A DNA stretch of 64,000 bases from a virus. Lineage: Duplodnaviria > Caudoviricetes. Positions within the stretch are counted from its first letter, which is position 1. Every line of letters starts with the position of its first letter. Made by a program: the position numbers and the translations under genes. Shown here piece by piece: positions 1 to 63,412 of the stretch. Below the pieces are notes generated by a model that was given only the letters and a program-made list of their open reading frames with translations, was not told the DNA's origin and searched no databases. The stretch is from IMG/VR virus record IMGVR_UViG_3300025605_000004, positions 1-64,000 of that record; one strand, given 5' to 3'.

Positions 1-1
1 C

Positions 2-106
2 AGCCTACCAGACATGAAGATAATAGAGCAGATTGACGGAGTGACACCTATTGCCACATCTGCAAGTAGGACAAATAGCCGACTGCTCGAATTAGAAGAA
101 GATTAG
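2..106 (+). CDS. 3' end of a CDS truncated by the window edge
   Basis: Open frame from the window start to TAG at 104-106 (SLPDMKIIEQIDG...LEED*). Confidence 0.4.
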   Translation, partial: SLPDMKIIEQIDGVTPIATSASRTNSRLLELEED

Positions 107-115
107 ACTAGAGAC

Positions 116-144
116 TTGACCTAACCTTCGGCATCAGTTATAAT
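116..144 (+). promoter_or_regulatory. sigma70-type promoter, probably giving a leaderless mRNA
   Basis: TTGACC(116-121)-17 nt-TATAAT(139-144); ATG at 151 is 6 nt downstream with no SD. Confidence 0.8.
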
Positions 145-150
145 GCAAGT

Positions 151-735
151 ATGCTGAACGTCATACTTGCAAACGTCGGTGGCTCTATAGGGAAATCTGT
201 ATGCGAGGTGCTTGGGAAGCTTGCTTCAAAGGTGCCTAGCAATGGAGCCATACTCGACCTCAATTGTGGCGAAGGTAGGTCTACCCTCGTGCTTGCGGCG
301 GCCCTGGAAGCCAAGGGCAAAGATGCCCTGGTTATGGCCGTCGATACCCACATCATTAACCCGTTTTCTGAGACCCCTTACCAGGAAGGCACAGCCCTGA
401 AACTTCTGGTCAATGCTCGCAGGTTCCGGTTGGCTCACAAGGTTGTCCCTATCGTCTGTGCTGCGGATGTAGCCGGGCGAGTGTTGGGCAAACGAGCGGC
501 CAACCTTGTAGTTGTTCAGTCGCCTAAAACCGTTCACAGTATATTCTCCGCAGACGCCGTTGCTCAGGCCATCGAGGTCGGCAAGGTGGCGTTGAGGTCA
601 AACGGGGCCATTGCGCTCGTGTGCCCCAATCCTGCCTGTCGGAATGAGTTCAACGCCATCGCTGCCAGCCACTTCGGAAAAGGCTATGTGAACGTCGTGA
701 ACGGCGAGGACATTAAGGTGTTCGAGGCAGCTTGA
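151..735 (+). CDS. Class I SAM-dependent methyltransferase-like protein (Methyltransf_24-like), possibly inactive
   Basis: Motif I-like ILDLNCGEGRST, then VMAVDTH and a later LRSNGAIAL; the usual IDGxH motif is not present. Confidence 0.65.
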   Translation: MLNVILANVGGSIGKSVCEVLGKLASKVPSNGAILDLNCGEGRSTLVLAAALEAKGKDALVMAVDTHIINPFSETPYQEGTALKLLVNARRFRLAHKVVPIVCAADVAGRVLGKRAANLVVVQSPKTVHSIFSADAVAQAIEVGKVALRSNGAIALVCPNPACRNEFNAIAASHFGKGYVNVVNGEDIKVFEAA

Positions 736-736
736 C

Positions 737-930
737 GTGTGGGTTTGAATATCATAGAGATGGTGTCGGTAGCTTCAATATCAGACAAAAGTATCTGGGA
801 GAAATCCCAGTAGTTGGGCTTATGGCATGCCCCATAGGGCTAAGGTACAAACCTCATGCTCTATGTAGCTCGGTGGTTGTATGATTGCCGAGAAAGAATC
901 CCCCGGATTTATCCGTGGGGAGAATGTCAA
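737..930 (+). mobile_element. IS200/IS605-family remnant: tnpB 3' fragment plus right end (omega-RNA scaffold region)
   Basis: 738-884 translates as CGFEYHRDGVGSFNIRQKYLG...* (TnpB Zn-ribbon/RuvC-III HRD..NI); right-end hairpin GAATCCCCCGGATTTATCCGTGGGGAG followed by TGTCAA(925-930); TTGAC at 732-736 immediately 5'. Confidence 0.85.
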
Positions 931-994
931 CCGTGGAAAGGTTCACCGTCTGCTGGAACCACGGTAGTCAAAGGAACGGAAAGGAGGTACCTTC

Positions 995-1324
995 GTGGAG
1001 GAACTATACAGCAAGTGGCTCACCCCTGAGTATGCGGCGATGATTGCGGTTATCGCCTTCACACTCAAGATACTGTTCGTGCCCATAGTTAAGGGGTTCA
1101 TCCCCGAGACGCATTATAAGGGTTACACCCCTGTTCTGATTGCGTTCATCGGTGCCGTCATCTTGAGCTTCCTGTTCAAGGTGTCTATGGGCGTGGGTGC
1201 GTGGGACGTTAAAGACATCGTCATGACGCTATTTGTGGCCGTCTTCTCTGCTACTTCTGCAATTGGTCTTAACGTAACTACTCAGGCCATGCAGGGCAAG
1301 AACGTATCCATTAATGACGGGTAA
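995..1324 (+). CDS. Membrane protein, holin-like
   Basis: 109 aa with three hydrophobic segments; AGGAGG SD before a GTG start. Confidence 0.55.
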   Translation: MEELYSKWLTPEYAAMIAVIAFTLKILFVPIVKGFIPETHYKGYTPVLIAFIGAVILSFLFKVSMGVGAWDVKDIVMTLFVAVFSATSAIGLNVTTQAMQGKNVSINDG

Positions 1325-1330
1325 CTAGAC

Positions 1331-1708
1331 ATGATACAGGAACACCCCTTCCCATTTTGGTGCTCTGAGCAGGCGGTGACATATACGGAGTTACAAGCTA
1401 TCTGCCGGGAAAAGTACCGACGAGAAGGGCCAGCCCTGATTGAACGGTGCAAGCAGAACATCGAAAGGTATGGTCGGATGACCGACAGACGGGAAGCCCT
1501 GAATGTGCTGCTTGCACTGGACAACGACAGTTTAGAGTTGTCGGCTCAAAACTCGATATGGATTGACTTTTCAGTGGCCGTCTTCGTTGTGCTGCTCTTA
1601 CCTTCTAGGTCGAGCATAGCGTGGACGGCCCAATATCTTAGGGACATATTTAACTCTACGCTCAGGAGAATAGAGAATGGTGATACAGAATGCACAGCAA
1701 TCAACTGA
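1331..1708 (+). CDS. Hypothetical protein
   Basis: Fits the packed + strand gene run. Confidence 0.55.
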   Translation: MIQEHPFPFWCSEQAVTYTELQAICREKYRREGPALIERCKQNIERYGRMTDRREALNVLLALDNDSLELSAQNSIWIDFSVAVFVVLLLPSRSSIAWTAQYLRDIFNSTLRRIENGDTECTAIN

Positions 1709-2051
1709 GATGACACCGGAACCGAAGGTCATCCAGATTGAGGTTCCTGGCAACTCAGCACTATGGTACTTCGAGGGTGGCGTTAAGACTGCCATCGAGA
1801 CGATGGAGACGACTAAACACTACCTGGAGAACTCGGGTGACTCGGCTGGAGTCGAGAGGATGAATGAGGCCCTGTCTTCGATGACGGCCCTGCTCGACGT
1901 GACCCGTCAAGTGAAAACCGACCTCATGACCGAGGCTAATCAGCGGGCTATGGCGTCAGTGGCGGCTCAACACCAGCAGGAACATCCCAATGGCGTTGCG
2001 GCAGACTTTGCTCCAAGGATAGAGGAAGCTACTGAGGCTGAGGACGAATAG
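1677..2051 (+). CDS. Hypothetical protein
   Basis: SD-like AGGAG upstream; converges on the minus-strand operon. Confidence 0.6.
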   Translation: MVIQNAQQSTEMTPEPKVIQIEVPGNSALWYFEGGVKTAIETMETTKHYLENSGDSAGVERMNEALSSMTALLDVTRQVKTDLMTEANQRAMASVAAQHQQEHPNGVAADFAPRIEEATEAEDE

Positions 2052-2679
2052 CTGCCCGTAGGCGGGCGTGAAGCTCTTTCTGCCTTTCTTCGGAAAGCTC
2101 TTTGACCCTCTGTTCAATCGGGTCTACACCTTCATCTTCTGGCTTTATAACCTCTTTCTTATCCAGTGTGAGGCCCTGGAGTTGAGTTAGCTGGTTGACC
2201 ACATTCATCTTCAGGGTCAGCATCCTGGCTTTATCAGCAGACGTTGCCCCCATCATCGCTTCCTCAATCTCGGCCTTCAGCTTTAGAAGCTCGGAGACCA
2301 TCCGGCCCCTGGCAATCTCCCTTTCCTCGGGCGTCATCACCCGTCCGAGATTCTGCCATTCGGAGTTCAGAGCTTCCAGGTGCTCCTCGACATCCTCCTT
2401 GCCCATCGCCAAGACCGAGGCAATTTCCTCGGCAGGGAGCCGATACAAGACAAACAACTGCTCTATTTTAGAACGTGTGGGCAGATTCGGCTTGATACCA
2501 TATTCAACCCAGATACGTTCGTTGAAGGTGAAGCCCATATCGTCGTCATCTGTTACCTGGGGAAATAGACGGGGCCTGCGGCCCTGTTGGGCCGCCTCCA
2601 ATACCTCCATCTCCGGGTCAAACTCCTCGGAAGTGGGGTCTATTCTTTTACGTTTTCTGATGTTGCTAACTTCAGACAT
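2029..2679 (-). CDS. HTH protein, candidate terminase small subunit
   Basis: HTH-like PAEEIASVLAMGKEDVEEHL followed by helical segments ending QLTQLQGL, a TerS-like layout; start overlaps the primase stop. Confidence 0.5.
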   Translation of the reverse strand: MSEVSNIRKRKRIDPTSEEFDPEMEVLEAAQQGRRPRLFPQVTDDDDMGFTFNERIWVEYGIKPNLPTRSKIEQLFVLYRLPAEEIASVLAMGKEDVEEHLEALNSEWQNLGRVMTPEEREIARGRMVSELLKLKAEIEEAMMGATSADKARMLTLKMNVVNQLTQLQGLTLDKKEVIKPEDEGVDPIEQRVKELSEERQKELHARLRAAIRPQPQ

Positions 2680-5461
2680 CCTCGAATCCTTCTGCGCCTT
2701 TCCACTGGTCGATGTTTATGCCATAGCGTTCCCGCACCTTGGACAGGTCTATTTGGACACAGGATTTGGTGAAATATGGATGGTTCGGGAAGCCCATGAC
2801 CGGAGAGTTTTCCTCCCCTGCGTGGTCTTTGAGCAGTTCCAAGAATTGTGTCTTGTCTGTAAGGGCAGCCGCAGACGACATGTTTCCACCATACCCAGTC
2901 AGATGCCTGAACCAGCGGCCAGTATCGAAGTAGGCTATACTACGGTCTTCAGTGTCATAGGTAAACACATAACCCTCAAGCGAGGTATTCTGCCTAAGAG
3001 CATTCATGATGGCAAAGTCGGTGGCCTCGAACAGGGTACGCATTGTCTCAGTGTCATACTCTCCTGCGTCTGCCAGTTGAGTATCTGCTGTATACAGTGA
3101 CTCTCTGAGCAACTTGTCGGTAAGTGGGTAGTGTAAGCCGTAGTGCTTGTAGATAGCTTTTAGCAGGAAGTGCCCCGCAACAATACCGACGAATGTCTTA
3201 AACTTCCTATCCACCTTTCTAATCGGACAGGTAGCATCTACCCAAGCAATGGCGTCTGATATGATGTCATTCACCTTGTCAAAATTGTTTCCTACCCAGT
3301 GAATGATAATCTGACCCATTTTACCGATGTTATCCGGGTTGTTACTCGCGTATAGCCATTCTCTCTCCAATCTTAGTCGTCTTTGTTCTTCTAATGGTAG
3401 GGTCTTGATATGGTTCAAGTGAGCGCGATTTAGACGGATGGTAAAGCTTCGCTGGGTGCAAGCTTCATCCGAATAATAGCTCTCCCCAATTATACACAGC
3501 GGTGTGGCGAAATCGCCTTTCACCAGCTTTTGACTCGATGTACCCGAGGCTGTGCCATTCCGGTCGAATAGACACCGAACGATGGCTTGTAAGTCTTTAG
3601 CCTTCTTGTCATCTTGCACCCTACCGTCAATTCTGAACTCATCGAGCACGAACGGGCAGATGTTGTTAGACAGTAGCATAGTCCTGACAGCATAGGCCGT
3701 CGTGCCAGGATATGAGTGAACTTTCATGTGGCCAAAGTGCGGCCCCAAGATGTGTTCAAACAGGTCGGTCTTACCAGAACCAGACAGACCACAGACTTGC
3801 AAAATTGGGAAGCCATGTTGTTTTTGCCAGATAAGTTCCGAAATCATAGCTCCGGCGAACCATCCCAGAGACGGCCAAATGAATCGAGGCTCGTGGAAGT
3901 TGGCATAGTATCGAGCAAACTTATCCAGATATTCAATTGCGTCTTCCGTGGTCGGGCAGCGAGCATATATTTCAGGCCGAGCCGTGTCTTCCCCACCCGT
4001 CCATACATAGTTCTCATGAGGTATACCAGGTAACAATAGAGTTGGTTTCCCTTTATCGGCATCGAGAATACCATACATCCGTGATTCCAACATCGTTATT
4101 GGTGGGCAAGTAGTATCCAACCACGCAATATACTTGTTCCAGAGGGCAGGTACTAGCACGGATAGCCCTACAGGAACATCGGTATTGAACTTTTGCCACG
4201 TGGATAGTTTCTCGGCGGGAATCTCTACCACAGTTGGTTGGTCACCTTGTTTTTTGATACAAGCCAACCAACTAGTCTGGTGGGTGTCAGCTTTAACTAC
4301 CTTACCTTTAAGTTCCACGATGAAATTACTGAAGATGGCTGGTTGTCCATCTGCACCGTTGTACCATGTTTGTAAGTCTCGGTGTATGAAGTCTCCCTCG
4401 GGAGTCTGGGGTGCGGTCGGGTCGTAGTTTTCAGGTATAAACTCGAATCCGCGCTTCTTGCAGTATATCTTCTTCAGTTTGACCCAAAAGGCAACCGCTT
4501 CATCCACTGCCTCATGGACTTCTGGATACTCAGAGTAGAGAGTAGCAATCCCCTCCATCGGGTTTTCATAGGTGGTGGCAACTGCTGTGAGCCGGTCGTC
4601 AACTTCCTGGTCTTCGTAGTATTGGCAGACCTCTTTACACAGGTTTTCGCAGGCCCCCCGGTTAATTCCGGCCTTGCGAACAGTGCCCGCAAGATATAGA
4701 TGTAAGTCGTGCCTGTTACCCCTGTCATAAATGTCTGCAAGCGCACGATTAACCGCAAAGAGAACGAGTCTCGGCACTATATCCGGGTCTGTCTTGAACC
4801 GGTTGCGAAGTTCTTTTAGTGTATAAACATTGTCCCGGTAGATACGGGCCTGGGCCATGTAGTGTGTGTCATACTCAGGCTTAACATTCAGGCTGCCTGG
4901 AAGCCTCATCAGGTTTCCGAGTCTAACAACCTTGTCGTCTCCGCCATAATACAGCATCATGTCCCACAGGATAGGAGCTATGGTCTCTTTGAATAGCTCC
5001 TTATCACCGTTCACCTCAAAAGGTTCATCCAGTTTGAAGAATGCCTGAATGCCATTCTTCGATGAACGAGTGAAACAGGAGACCTCCTCCGTATCTTTCA
5101 GTTCTCCGTAGAACTCATCGCCTGGAATCCCGAGTTCCTTACAGCCGTCAATGTCAACCCACAGAGCCGGAATACTTACGGTGTTAAGTTGATTGCTCTT
5201 TTCTTCTCTTGTTCTTGTAGTCGCCGTGCAAAAGACCATGCCCCACAGGTGGCCTTGTTCCGACCAGAAGGAGTTGTCAATCTTCTCCGGTCTGGAAAAC
5301 GAGGCTGGACGAACCTCAAGTTTTCCTTGCCTTGCCTCCATCGGGTCGGATGAGGGTCGCTGCCGTAGGACATATATAAAGCCGTCTGGTTTTTCCCCAA
5401 AAAACCATGATAAGAAGTCAATTGCATGAGCGACATCTGGTGCAGTCTTCAAAGTCATCAA
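2672..5461 (-). CDS. Primase-helicase: RepB-like AEP primase plus C-terminal P-loop helicase (DUF927-like)
   Basis: ALWVDID, SSKNGIQAFF and LMRLPGSLN primase motifs; Walker A GLSGSGKT; Walker B FVLDEF. Confidence 0.85.
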   Translation of the reverse strand: MMTLKTAPDVAHAIDFLSWFFGEKPDGFIYVLRQRPSSDPMEARQGKLEVRPASFSRPEKIDNSFWSEQGHLWGMVFCTATTRTREEKSNQLNTVSIPALWVDIDGCKELGIPGDEFYGELKDTEEVSCFTRSSKNGIQAFFKLDEPFEVNGDKELFKETIAPILWDMMLYYGGDDKVVRLGNLMRLPGSLNVKPEYDTHYMAQARIYRDNVYTLKELRNRFKTDPDIVPRLVLFAVNRALADIYDRGNRHDLHLYLAGTVRKAGINRGACENLCKEVCQYYEDQEVDDRLTAVATTYENPMEGIATLYSEYPEVHEAVDEAVAFWVKLKKIYCKKRGFEFIPENYDPTAPQTPEGDFIHRDLQTWYNGADGQPAIFSNFIVELKGKVVKADTHQTSWLACIKKQGDQPTVVEIPAEKLSTWQKFNTDVPVGLSVLVPALWNKYIAWLDTTCPPITMLESRMYGILDADKGKPTLLLPGIPHENYVWTGGEDTARPEIYARCPTTEDAIEYLDKFARYYANFHEPRFIWPSLGWFAGAMISELIWQKQHGFPILQVCGLSGSGKTDLFEHILGPHFGHMKVHSYPGTTAYAVRTMLLSNNICPFVLDEFRIDGRVQDDKKAKDLQAIVRCLFDRNGTASGTSSQKLVKGDFATPLCIIGESYYSDEACTQRSFTIRLNRAHLNHIKTLPLEEQRRLRLEREWLYASNNPDNIGKMGQIIIHWVGNNFDKVNDIISDAIAWVDATCPIRKVDRKFKTFVGIVAGHFLLKAIYKHYGLHYPLTDKLLRESLYTADTQLADAGEYDTETMRTLFEATDFAIMNALRQNTSLEGYVFTYDTEDRSIAYFDTGRWFRHLTGYGGNMSSAAALTDKTQFLELLKDHAGEENSPVMGFPNHPYFTKSCVQIDLSKVRERYGINIDQWKGAEGFEDV

Positions 5462-61649: not shown

Positions 61650-61883
61650 ATGAATAAGAAGCCATCATTAACATTTGTACTCGACGGAGCTTCTTTGCTA
61701 GTCGGGGTCACTAATACCGACGGTATCTTTGAACCCTGCGGGATAATTCCTGCCGATGCGCTGGAGGAACTGTCTTGCGTCAAAGACGGCAAGCGACATC
61801 GGTTTATCCCCAAAGATGGCATAATTCAGCACATAGAGGAAGACAAATGGTACAGAAGCGGAGTTATAGAAAGAGGAAACTGA
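61650..61883 (+). CDS. Hypothetical protein
   Basis: GGAGGT SD. Confidence 0.55.
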   Translation: MNKKPSLTFVLDGASLLVGVTNTDGIFEPCGIIPADALEELSCVKDGKRHRFIPKDGIIQHIEEDKWYRSGVIERGN

Positions 61884-61887
61884 GTAA

Positions 61888-62079
61888 ATGGCTATCTATC
61901 ACTATTCATTCTACACACAGAATCCAACCTCGGAAAACGAGGAACCTGACCAAGTTGGCACCATCGAGGCCGACAGTCAGAGCCAAGCACTGATGAAGCT
62001 TGCCAAGAAACACGGACGGCTCATCAAGCCCCGTGTAGTAAGTGAAGCAGAGCAGTGGGGAGGTAGTAAGAAGCGATGA
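61888..62079 (+). CDS. Hypothetical protein
   Basis: Packed small ORF. Confidence 0.5.
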   Translation: MAIYHYSFYTQNPTSENEEPDQVGTIEADSQSQALMKLAKKHGRLIKPRVVSEAEQWGGSKKR

Positions 62080-62100
62080 TGACCTGTCGGAAAAAAGTCG

Positions 62101-62298
62101 ATGAGCGAACGGGCTAAAGTTGTGTTGGAGGCCATCGAAGAAGCCAAGGCTGCCGGTCTCGACCATCTCACACTCAAACTCGATGATGACGAAGACTTGT
62201 TTACAGAGCTTACGAGTTTGGGGCTATCTGTCGAGAATTGTGCGCCGGGCGAATATCATGTTTCCTGGATGGCCCCTTGCCAAGACACAGGGAGTTAA
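62101..62298 (+). CDS. Hypothetical protein
   Basis: Packed small ORF. Confidence 0.5.
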   Translation: MSERAKVVLEAIEEAKAAGLDHLTLKLDDDEDLFTELTSLGLSVENCAPGEYHVSWMAPCQDTGS

Positions 62299-62317
62299 TA
62301 TAAAATGCAGAGAGGCG

Positions 62318-62446
62318 GTGATAGTAGATACAAGGGAGGTAGAAGCCCTTGACCTTTGCTTCGGTGATGAGCGTGTGGCCGAAGCTTATGAGGAAGCAGC
62401 GCGACATTGTGAAGCTTTCCCAGAGAACGTTTACACGCTAAGTTAG
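62318..62446 (+). CDS. Small hypothetical protein
   Basis: 3' part of ORF 62120..62446; GAGG before GTG 62318. Confidence 0.4.
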   Translation: MIVDTREVEALDLCFGDERVAEAYEEAARHCEAFPENVYTLS

Positions 62447-62457
62447 GAGGAAACGGT

Positions 62458-62796
62458 ATGAACGAGCGCGACATAAAAGAAGAAATACTGACCCAGCTAT
62501 TCGGGCCGCCTTATTGGGCACTTACGGTGCCCGAAGAAGTTGTGGTTATAGAAGGCTATGGTGACTTCTACACTCACAAGCGGTCTGAAGATAAGCTGAA
62601 CCCAGTAATCGTCTTCTCGGATGAGGAGATAGCATGGCAATTCATTGAGGCCCTAGAAGACAATGAGTATCGACCCCGGCGAATGCTGAAGCAGGAAGTC
62701 ATTGACTACGTGCTGAAGTATCAGCCACTCGTTGATGCCCTGGTGCTCCTGGACATACCGGAGAGACCGGTGTTTCAGCAAATCAAAGACCTGTAG
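62458..62796 (+). CDS. Hypothetical protein
   Basis: AGGAGG SD. Confidence 0.65.
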   Translation: MNERDIKEEILTQLFGPPYWALTVPEEVVVIEGYGDFYTHKRSEDKLNPVIVFSDEEIAWQFIEALEDNEYRPRRMLKQEVIDYVLKYQPLVDALVLLDIPERPVFQQIKDL

Positions 62797-62801
62797 GTAT
62801 A

Positions 62802-62829
62802 GTAAACCCTCGGTTAGCCGGGGGTTTAC
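62802..62829 (+). terminator. Hairpin ending the + strand transcription unit
   Basis: GTAAACCCTCGG...CCGGGGGTTTAC. Confidence 0.6.
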
Positions 62830-62847
62830 CTGTAGCTGGGGGTTTCG

Positions 62848-62906
62848 GTTAAGGCTGTAAGTCTGTTAAGGCTGTAAGTCTGTTAAGGCTGTAAATCTGT
62901 TAAGGC
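62848..62906. repeat. 17-bp tandem repeat, 3.5 copies
   Basis: GTTAAGGCTGTAARTCT at 62848, 62865 and 62882, partial at 62899. Confidence 0.95.
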
Positions 62907-63013
62907 GCAGGACAATTTCCGCCGTGGTCAGAGTGTAAGGGGTGCTCCGGCCCTCGTGAGATTACTGGGGTATAGGGGATTTGCCCTGGTACTTTTACTA
63001 GGTTTTTTGATAT

Positions 63014-63040
63014 AGAAGAAACCCAGTATTTCTACTGGGC
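63014..63040 (-). terminator. Terminator for the minus-strand genes
   Basis: Minus strand CCCAGTA-GAAA-TACTGGG then TTTCTTCT. Confidence 0.7.
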
Positions 63041-63055
63041 TTCAGGGAATATGTG

Positions 63056-63412
63056 TCAGAACTTTGACAAAAATTCTTTGAATCTTCTTACCATGGTTTT
63101 GTCATTGTGACGCCATTGTAACAACTTGCGTATAGGCATCTTAACATCCTGCCATACCTTTGACAATTGCAGGGCCGTTTTCTCCCAATCGCTCAAATCC
63201 GCATCAATTATGGCGTTTAAGTACTTCTCGCCAATCGGCTTACCCGTTAAACGCTGATATACTTCGCAGGGCCTAATATCTAGTACTGCTTGTATATCTT
63301 CCTCTGAGGATACTGCTAGAATTGCTAGGGATTTCAGGATTATATCAGCAGAATGGAACTTCTGATACTGGCCCTTCCCCTCCATGTTTAACTTGTGGTA
63401 CTTGCTAGTCAT
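63056..63412 (-). CDS. Hypothetical protein
   Basis: GGAGG SD on the minus strand. Confidence 0.65.
   Translation of the reverse strand: MTSKYHKLNMEGKGQYQKFHSADIILKSLAILAVSSEEDIQAVLDIRPCEVYQRLTGKPIGEKYLNAIIDADLSDWEKTALQLSKVWQDVKMPIRKLLQWRHNDKTMVRRFKEFLSKF

Follow-up and report, generated by a model that had tools for sequence, protein, structure and literature searches.

The closest described relatives of the locus reported here are the IS200/IS605 insertion sequences (ISs) that encode TnpB together with a right-end element RNA (reRNA), or omega-RNA, such as ISDra2, with the transposon-adjacent motif (TAM) TTGAT, and IS608 (TTAC/TCAA). The ISDra2 reRNA is ~150 nt long including the guide (PMC8612924), and AmaTnpB trims long transcripts to 126 nt, TnpB processing them at the 5'-end and tolerating extra 3' sequence (PMC10278001). 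A separately supplied omega-RNA works (PMC8612924; PMC10691335), and stand-alone omega-RNAs act in trans with compatible effectors (PMC10691335; PMC10055086). Palindrome-associated transposable elements (PATEs) and stand-alone omega-RNAs are derivatives of IS200/IS605 elements that encode no protein and supply their omega-RNAs in trans (Altae-Tran 2021 via PMC10691335; Meers 2023, PMC10055086). In TldR-guide RNA pairs, some of which lie on prophages, nuclease-dead TnpB proteins serve as repressors (PMC10705468), and in T4-like phages free-standing homing endonuclease genes bring about intronless homing and localised marker exclusion (PMC13565253). Here we describe a 194-nt piece of an IS605-family element at positions 737-930 of the window, by which we mean the first 64 kb (64,000 nt) of the 98,174-bp IMG/VR virus record IMGVR_UViG_3300025605_000004. 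We consider it probable that this remnant is a young, immobilised 3' scar of the IS with latent guide capacity, and not a demonstrated phage adaptation.

The parent IS shares with IS200/IS605 elements the imperfect subterminal hairpins and the insertion 3' of a 4-5-nt TAM without target duplication. Its right end finishes in TCAA preceded by GAAT, as in IS608, and its scaffold of ~140 nt, comparable to the ~150-nt reRNA of ISDra2 (PMC8612924), overlaps the 3'-end of tnpB and reads into the flank. Unlike a complete IS200/IS605 element, the window locus has the last 194 nt only, with no left end, tnpA or working tnpB, and the TAM is NTGAC. The parent IS circulates in the chromosome of an Armatimonadota metagenome-assembled genome (MAG) and in phage-like contigs. 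The remnant resembles PATEs in having a scaffold and guide without an adjacent effector or transposase and in its predicted dependence on TnpB made elsewhere. PATEs, however, keep both ends and are mobilisable, whereas the remnant has lost its left end and is fixed in place; in addition, no effector is encoded in the same genome, and the guide still matches a natural empty allele perfectly. We also observed two PATE-like mini-elements (L009:2432-2692 and L017:13975-14224) in one 148-kb viral contig (IMGVR_UViG_3300033802_000252), each with ~50 nt of a left end and the last 164 nt including the omega-RNA scaffold; their intact parent, a different IS, is in L010. With TldR guides the remnant shares the presence of a TnpB-type guide RNA on a phage genome, and it differs from them in that there is no TldR or TnpB gene, the cognate RuvC triad is intact, and the guide is the unaltered flank with no promoter match. 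If the remnant were active, the outcome would be that of T4-like homing, in which the element-less allele of a co-infecting relative is cut and then converted or excluded; the phage would carry the RNA specificity module only and borrow the nuclease, and the parallel is thus an analogy of outcome, not homology. As an IS605 remnant or stand-alone omega-RNA, the finding belongs to a class known in the literature, to which the IS family in Armatimonadota and their phages adds a further member. The features of the locus are as follows.

732-736, + strand: TAM and insertion target TTGAC; the insert lies directly 3', and in the empty allele CCGTGG lies directly 3'
737-930, + strand: insert, equivalent to nt ~1488-1681 of an IS605-family element of ~1681 nt (tnpA and tnpB)
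738-884, + strand: last 48 codons of tnpB (Cys338 to the end, with the RuvC-III HRD motif), stop codon 882-884
788-930, + strand: conserved omega-RNA scaffold core: AAAGUAUC, then five predicted hairpins and a tail ending GUCAA (from covariation, fold and alignments)
795-810, 816-832, 833-865, 869-892 and 899-921, + strand: core hairpins in the single-sequence fold
899-921, + strand: right-end subterminal imperfect hairpin with a bulged T, TnpA recognition element and also last omega-RNA stem
927-930, + strand: TCAA, right-end cleavage tetranucleotide and element boundary, shared by 14 loci
931-950, + strand: guide-encoding flank CCGTGGAAAGGTTCACCGTC, identical in the empty allele, where TTGAC lies 5' of it
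931-971, + strand: native intergenic inverted repeat CCGTGG...CCACGG, extended by TTGAC/GTCAA in the empty allele

The insert was identified by comparison with intact copies of the IS. Positions 738-930 are 98.4% identical over 193 nt to the intact IS in the metagenome contig L047, which carries a Y1 tnpA and a 385-aa tnpB; the two differ at three positions only (758, 776 and 782), and the match ends exactly at the TCAA at 927-930. Identity to other variants of the IS is 92.8% (L049) and 89.7% (L048). The TCAA boundary is common to 14 loci with the IS, intact or truncated, that have 11 different right flanks, and three further intact copies share it. Intact relatives have subterminal hairpins at both ends, and the window locus has the right-end hairpin only, which shows a compensatory A-T to C-G change in L049. 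Together with the tail ending GTCAA, this hairpin recurs in 36 IMG/VR contigs, mostly directly 3' of full-length tnpB open reading frames (ORFs; 360-454 aa). The 48-aa fragment (738-881) is 100% identical to residues 338-385 of the 385-aa TnpB P0001, and we assign it to TnpB because of this identity, not via Pfam: the fragment alone had no Pfam match at E<=0.1, and a genome search with PF07282 returned a weak 14-bit match to it. The piece is too short for a working protein. PF01797 (Y1 TnpA) had no match anywhere in the 98-kb genome and no tnpB was found there beyond the residue 338-385 fragment. The insert, which lacks the left end, tnpA and tnpB codons 1-337, can no longer move, because the left end is gone and the phage also has neither tnpA nor tnpB. 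A search for contigs carrying the full-length IS at 732-736 returned none. The IS itself was seen only in metagenome contigs and in one MAG, had no Rfam RNA match, and was compared with no IS database. An initial annotation of this DNA, made from the letters alone, had already described the end of a tnpB (48 codons), a right-end hairpin bounded by TCAA, and the lack of tnpA and full tnpB in the window, all of which the comparisons bore out; its statement that there is no left end is correct for the locus, but a left-end remnant (~88.49 kb) and a second right-end hairpin remnant (~83.15 kb) of the same IS family lie elsewhere in the genome, outside the window.

To define the TAM, the left flanks of 12 independent insertions of the IS family were compared: intact copies in phage-like contigs, the MAG copy, the tnpB-only L048, the window, two other scars in the phage genome, and L059. 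The flanks read CTGAC, ATGAC, CTGAC, ATGAC, TTGAC, TTGAC, TTGAC, TTGAC, ATGAC, GTGAC, ATGAC and GCGAC, i.e. the TAM is NTGAC and TGAC is present at 11 of the 12 sites, in agreement with the TTGAC-like TAM anticipated for the cognate TnpB. The more distant L049, whose boundary is putative and would read TTAAC, was left out of the twelve. The TGA within the TAM is often the stop of the gene upstream (the window ORF and the Dcm, VRR_NUC and PfkB genes), which accounts for the position of the insertion on a stop codon.

The empty site, which the initial annotation had reconstructed as TTGAC/CCGTGG, exists as a natural allele. Seven contigs were compared out of 17 that encode an identical upstream protein, and the cassette is present in five of them (L152, L153, L154, L156 and L157). 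These cassette-bearing strains are ~0.1% from the window, and a lineage ~1% away, represented by L155, has no cassette and reads TTGAC/CCGTGGAAAGG (fuller junction, GCAGCTTGAC/CCGTGGAAAGGTTCACC). Occupied (TTGAC/insert/CCGTGG) and empty (TTGAC/CCGTGG) alleles together define an insert of exactly 194 nt without target duplication. While the L155 flanks are ~1% divergent, positions 931-973 are identical, and TAM and guide therefore match L155 perfectly (43 nt). The Logan contig L158, from a third sample, ends exactly after TTGAC, consistent with what is expected if two alleles coexist in that sample. The longer hairpin that removal of the insert was thought to rebuild is real, but its stability is no better than that of shuffles (z -0.66).

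The scaffold was delimited in an alignment of the 3' regions of intact relatives, with TnpB identity from 100% down to 57-61%. Twenty-five pairs are paired in 97% of cells, compared with 82% in column shuffles, and 15 of the 25 show compensatory changes on both sides; none of 500 shuffles was as good, and slid controls were 28-51% paired. Compensatory change is abundant in four hairpins. The remaining one, the fourth (869-892), is not among the 25 pairs, its columns aligning poorly, and is taken from the single-sequence fold alone. The core of the window copy is predicted to fold into the five hairpins at -57.6 kcal/mol (z -4.45). Its start, AAGTATC, is conserved in every aligned member, and by eye is shared by relatives at ~40% protein identity. 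The core at 788-930 is 100% identical to the scaffold of the intact L047, and since known reRNAs are ~126-150 nt and the core is 143 nt, the 194 nt hold the whole scaffold with 50 nt to spare. The predicted omega-RNA scaffold is thus complete in the window copy and not truncated relative to intact homologs, as had been supposed from the length of the kept piece. Its placement is that of an omega-RNA: it overlaps the 3'-end of tnpB, ends at the right-end boundary, and takes its guide from the adjacent flank. An Rfam scan of 1-3000 at E<=1 gave no match to an omega-RNA family, as Rfam contains no model able to detect this RNA, and a family-specific 24-mer of the scaffold had 0 matches in IMG/VR. 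The scaffold reads into the guide CCGTGGAAAGGTTCAC, which is the original insertion flank. A 16-mer of the guide had seven matches in IMG/VR, none after TGAC and none related, which is no more than chance level by a rough estimate, not a computed one. When the phage and the incomplete Armatimonadota MAG were searched for the TAM followed by the guide, allowing up to 3 mismatches, the only match was the occupied site itself. Natural targets among related phages, which the initial annotation had suggested looking for, are represented by the L155 lineage, with none in the (incomplete) MAG.

The cognate full-length TnpB is present in an Armatimonadota MAG and in phage-like contigs. The cluster of P0001 has 30 members, one of them annotated from an Armatimonadota MAG, in which an intact copy of the IS (98% at the nucleotide level; TnpB 97% at the amino acid level) lies at the end of a 26-kb contig. 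We regard this contig as chromosomal because it also carries dnaA, recF, rtcB and other housekeeping genes. The MAG copy (L148-L150, contig C29) lies downstream of a pfkB-family gene, with dnaA and recF a few kb away, and its tnpB runs into the contig end, so that the right flank, i.e. the guide, is beyond the contig. Other copies, 99.6% alike, occur in phage-like contigs beside VRR_NUC, VanY, XhlA, MT-A70 and SSB genes. Aligned with solved TnpB and Cas12f structures, P0001 retains the D, E and D positions of RuvC, which argues that it is of the nuclease type and not the TldR type. The phage genome itself encodes no compatible effector; the nearest are those of the MAG chromosome and of the other phage-like contigs. 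The MAG copy supports Armatimonadota, otherwise unplaced as this phage is, as the likely host phylum of the 98-kb phage. Separately, the intact copies L052-L057, L169 and L170 were found to have a single left flank in common, the end of a VRR_NUC gene, and at least four different right flanks. This combination indicates that the IS there marks a boundary at which phage genomes have recombined or are mosaic, and many of the TAM-guide pairs found at it may never have existed as empty sites.

The transcriptional context of the remnant is given by the following features.

116-144, + strand: sigma-70-like promoter, TTGACC-17 nt-TATAAT, 11 of 12 consensus positions matching
151-735, + strand: 194-aa ORF, weakly methyltransferase-like, TGA stop (733-735) inside the TAM, Pfam matches sub-threshold
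995-1324, + strand: 109-aa gene, hydrophobic product with no Pfam family, ribosome-binding site AAGGAGG 5' of the gene

The promoter is the sole promoter-like site on the + strand 5' of the cassette. No terminator-like site on the + strand was found in 1-1500, and no T-tract was found after any + strand hairpin, so the near-consensus promoter and the absence of a terminator between it and the insert, as initially annotated, both stood. We infer from these signals that the upstream ORF, the cassette and the 109-aa gene form one transcription unit; with the promoter-like site at 116-144 and no + strand terminator through 1500, the cassette would be read within the operon transcript. The promoter stops 6 nt 5' of the ATG at 151, and the mRNA of the 194-aa ORF is therefore probably leaderless. 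The overlap of TTGAC with the stop of this ORF is as originally described, while the label methyltransferase has sub-threshold Pfam matches behind it. No relatives of the ORF were found in IMG/VR, and INPHARED phages had no match to 1-3000 by megablast or to the ORF by tblastn. By exact-protein look-up, the same protein is encoded in 17 contigs of the same phage from many samples. Between the window and the ~1%-divergent L155 lineage the ORF differs at 7 nt, and because all seven differences are synonymous and the protein is identical, the gene is under strong purifying selection.

The edges of the remnant bear on how it arose. Its left edge is exact to the base, TTGAC/G-TGTGGG. Directly 5' of the kept part the IS reads TTCCAA, and the next base is G in L048 and L049 and C in the closest copies; the remnant shares two further variant bases with L048 and L049. 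L059 has the same design, ATGAC/GGAGAT, where the IS reads CTCAA/GGAGAT. The window and L059 are thus two independent remnants that join a TGAC TAM to the base after an internal xCAA. The normal right-end cut of the IS falls after TCAA. Since the left edge coincides with the TAM/IS boundary and the right edge follows an internal CCAA resembling TCAA, we infer that the deletion was most likely a TnpA-type partial excision. This is the new point of the analysis: a deletion running from the exact TAM/IS boundary to just after an internal CCAA suggests such an excision, although the two xCAA junctions are suggestive and not proof. A start at the IS boundary would be rare for a random deletion. Microhomology-mediated deletion was considered and rejected because the two edges share no sequence, and incomplete TnpB-driven homing repair was rejected because the resulting left edge would not coincide exactly with the TAM.

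Two further remnants of the same IS are present in the phage genome, each adjoining its own TGAC, and of the three scars only that in the window keeps the scaffold. The second (~83,145-83,190; L002:1495-1540), outside the window, begins at an ATGAC that includes the Dcm stop codon; a left-end tip, CAAAAATCCCC (the first 11 nt), runs directly into the right-end hairpin, and the end is degenerate. This scar terminates a low-GC cassette comprising an Xre-type helix-turn-helix gene and a C5 cytosine methyltransferase gene (PF00145, E 8e-105), just 5' of a promoter-like site and a pfkB-family kinase gene. The third (~88,487-88,547), also outside the window, has GTGAC and then ~60 nt of left end including the hairpin, after which it reads AAAGTC/AA and continues into unrelated DNA; its structure suggests that the deletion ran from the left end to the final bases of the right end. 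We also considered whether the left end at ~88.49 kb and the right end at 737-930, 10.6 kb apart across the record end, are one split element, and rejected this because the break points are non-contiguous (IS nt ~60 and ~1488) and each remnant adjoins its own TAM. The 41-nt terminal repeat of the record is an assembly overlap only, since other assemblies continue straight across the record end. In related contigs, remnants begin at IS nt ~203 (L059), ~471 (L062), ~678 (L050/L051) and ~1073 (L060), and a lineage comprising L050, L051, L060 and L066 has an internal deletion of nt ~1225-1620 that removed most of the scaffold and kept the terminal hairpin. Among sub-strains, two of five substitutions fall in the 194 nt of the cassette out of 4585 nt (binomial P = 0.016): G784A, 4 nt 5' of the core, and T878C, which turns a predicted U-G into C-G. 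As both are harmless to the predicted structure, this signal is weak in either direction.

Taken together, the scar is real and well defined. The structural part of the initial interpretation was confirmed in full, and the functional part is not favoured. In the account we prefer, a full IS would have inserted 3' of TTGAC at the stop of the upstream gene, as this IS family often does, and one event would have removed everything from the first base of the left end through tnpB codon 337; a TnpA strand exchange joining the left-end cleavage site to a pseudo right-end site would produce such a donor. Left behind would be a complete omega-RNA gene, the 143-nt scaffold core with 50 nt upstream, reading into the flank on the strand of the upstream gene with no terminator between. 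With a cognate TnpB in the infected cell, supplied by the host chromosome or a co-infecting phage, the transcript could be 5'-processed and loaded, and the loaded TnpB could then direct cleavage of the empty TTGAC+CCGTGG allele of the sister lineage. We regard such guide activity as a latent by-product, ordinary for any IS605 omega-RNA by analogy. The sequence evidence speaks for capacity and not for use, and the remnant fits best alongside the two other scars that this IS has left in the genome. Random deletion endpoints in relatives had been named in advance as the mark of a decaying IS, and the varied endpoints (IS nt 203, 471, 678 and 1073) and the two different scars largely correspond to that picture. 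Several observations nevertheless pull against a mere scar. The whole scaffold was kept and neither later substitution breaks it, so that weak constraint on the scaffold is possible; the deletion is non-random at its left edge; and a perfect natural target and a cognate nuclease are both found in engineered anaerobic habitats of a similar type, which makes activity during co-infection plausible. As for the proposed origin, base 737 (G) fits L048 and L049 and not the closest copies (C), and the case for TnpA partial excision consists of two junctions.

In an alternative that we regard as unlikely, the remnant is a nuclease-less working guide, kept by its own drive or by selection, that borrows TnpB from the host or a sibling phage. 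In mixed infection it would cut empty-site relatives at TTGAC+CCGTGG, with their conversion by recombination (homing of the immobile cassette) or their exclusion as the result. The scaffold is complete and identical to that of intact copies, and it follows a consensus promoter on the same strand as the upstream gene, with no terminator between; the sister lineage offers a perfect TAM and 43-nt match, the L158 break after TTGAC is consistent with coexisting alleles, and a cognate TnpB with an intact catalytic triad is encoded in an Armatimonadota chromosome and several phage-like contigs. Trans use of stand-alone omega-RNAs has, moreover, been shown experimentally in other systems (PMC10691335). 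Set against this, the cassette is very young and, because it is confined to near-identical strains, its retention is silent on selection; substitution density is higher in the cassette than in its flanks, the two other scars in the genome lack the scaffold, searches of the phage, the MAG and IMG/VR gave no further target for the guide, and TnpB in the actual host is presumed from one MAG. The more specific proposal that the phage carries an immobile, RNA-only gene-drive or marker-exclusion cassette, left when TnpA excised part of the element, between the left-end cleavage site and an internal TCAA-like site, is likewise one that we regard as unlikely. If it were true, the remnant would borrow TnpB to cut and convert, or exclude, empty-site sister phages in an Armatimonadota phage population with both alleles. 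The predicted structure also allows a role in cis and independent of TnpB, as an mRNA stabiliser, processing site or partial terminator of the upstream operon: five stable hairpins lie between two co-oriented genes, and the second scar likewise keeps only a hairpin directly 3' of a gene stop. This is highly improbable, given that the empty-site lineage works without the cassette and has an identical upstream protein, that the + strand hairpins are not followed by a T-tract, and that omega-RNA covariation in intact elements accounts fully for the structure. More improbable still are two roles raised in the initial annotation, that of a decoy titrating host TnpB and that of a guide with which a nuclease-dead repressor of the TldR type would control a host or phage promoter, for which the TldR-guide pairs on prophages provide general precedent only (PMC10705468). 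Here the phage has no TnpB-like gene, the cognate TnpB keeps its D-E-D triad, no TAM-flanked guide match was found in the phage or the (incomplete) MAG, and the guide is the original flank and was not re-aimed. We know of no TnpB that attacks phages, and a decoy would therefore have nothing to counter. Use by the phage, be it as a decoy, with a TldR partner or under selection, is possible but unsupported.

Even as a scar, the remnant is unusually clean: the empty and occupied alleles, the parent IS, its TAM and its predicted omega-RNA structure are all available, as is a copy of the nuclease from a likely host. It is thus a natural test case for how IS605 elements decay, and for whether gene-less phage omega-RNAs act in trans and bias inheritance between competing strains. 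If true, TnpA partial excision would systematically leave guide-bearing right ends and could explain recurrent phage orphans; if the partial-excision and trans-use readings are wrong, the locus is an ordinary transposon remnant.

One further site in the window involves the same IS family. The 1653-bp contig L061 is 99.9% identical to window positions 61,862-63,384, and left of ~61,862 a right end of the IS family (97.6% identical to window 806-930) replaces the window sequence. Look-ups for strains with a full IS beside position 61,862 returned IS-free contigs, the short L061 being the sole evidence. L061 represents a sibling strain with a polymorphic insertion of the IS at a mosaic boundary.

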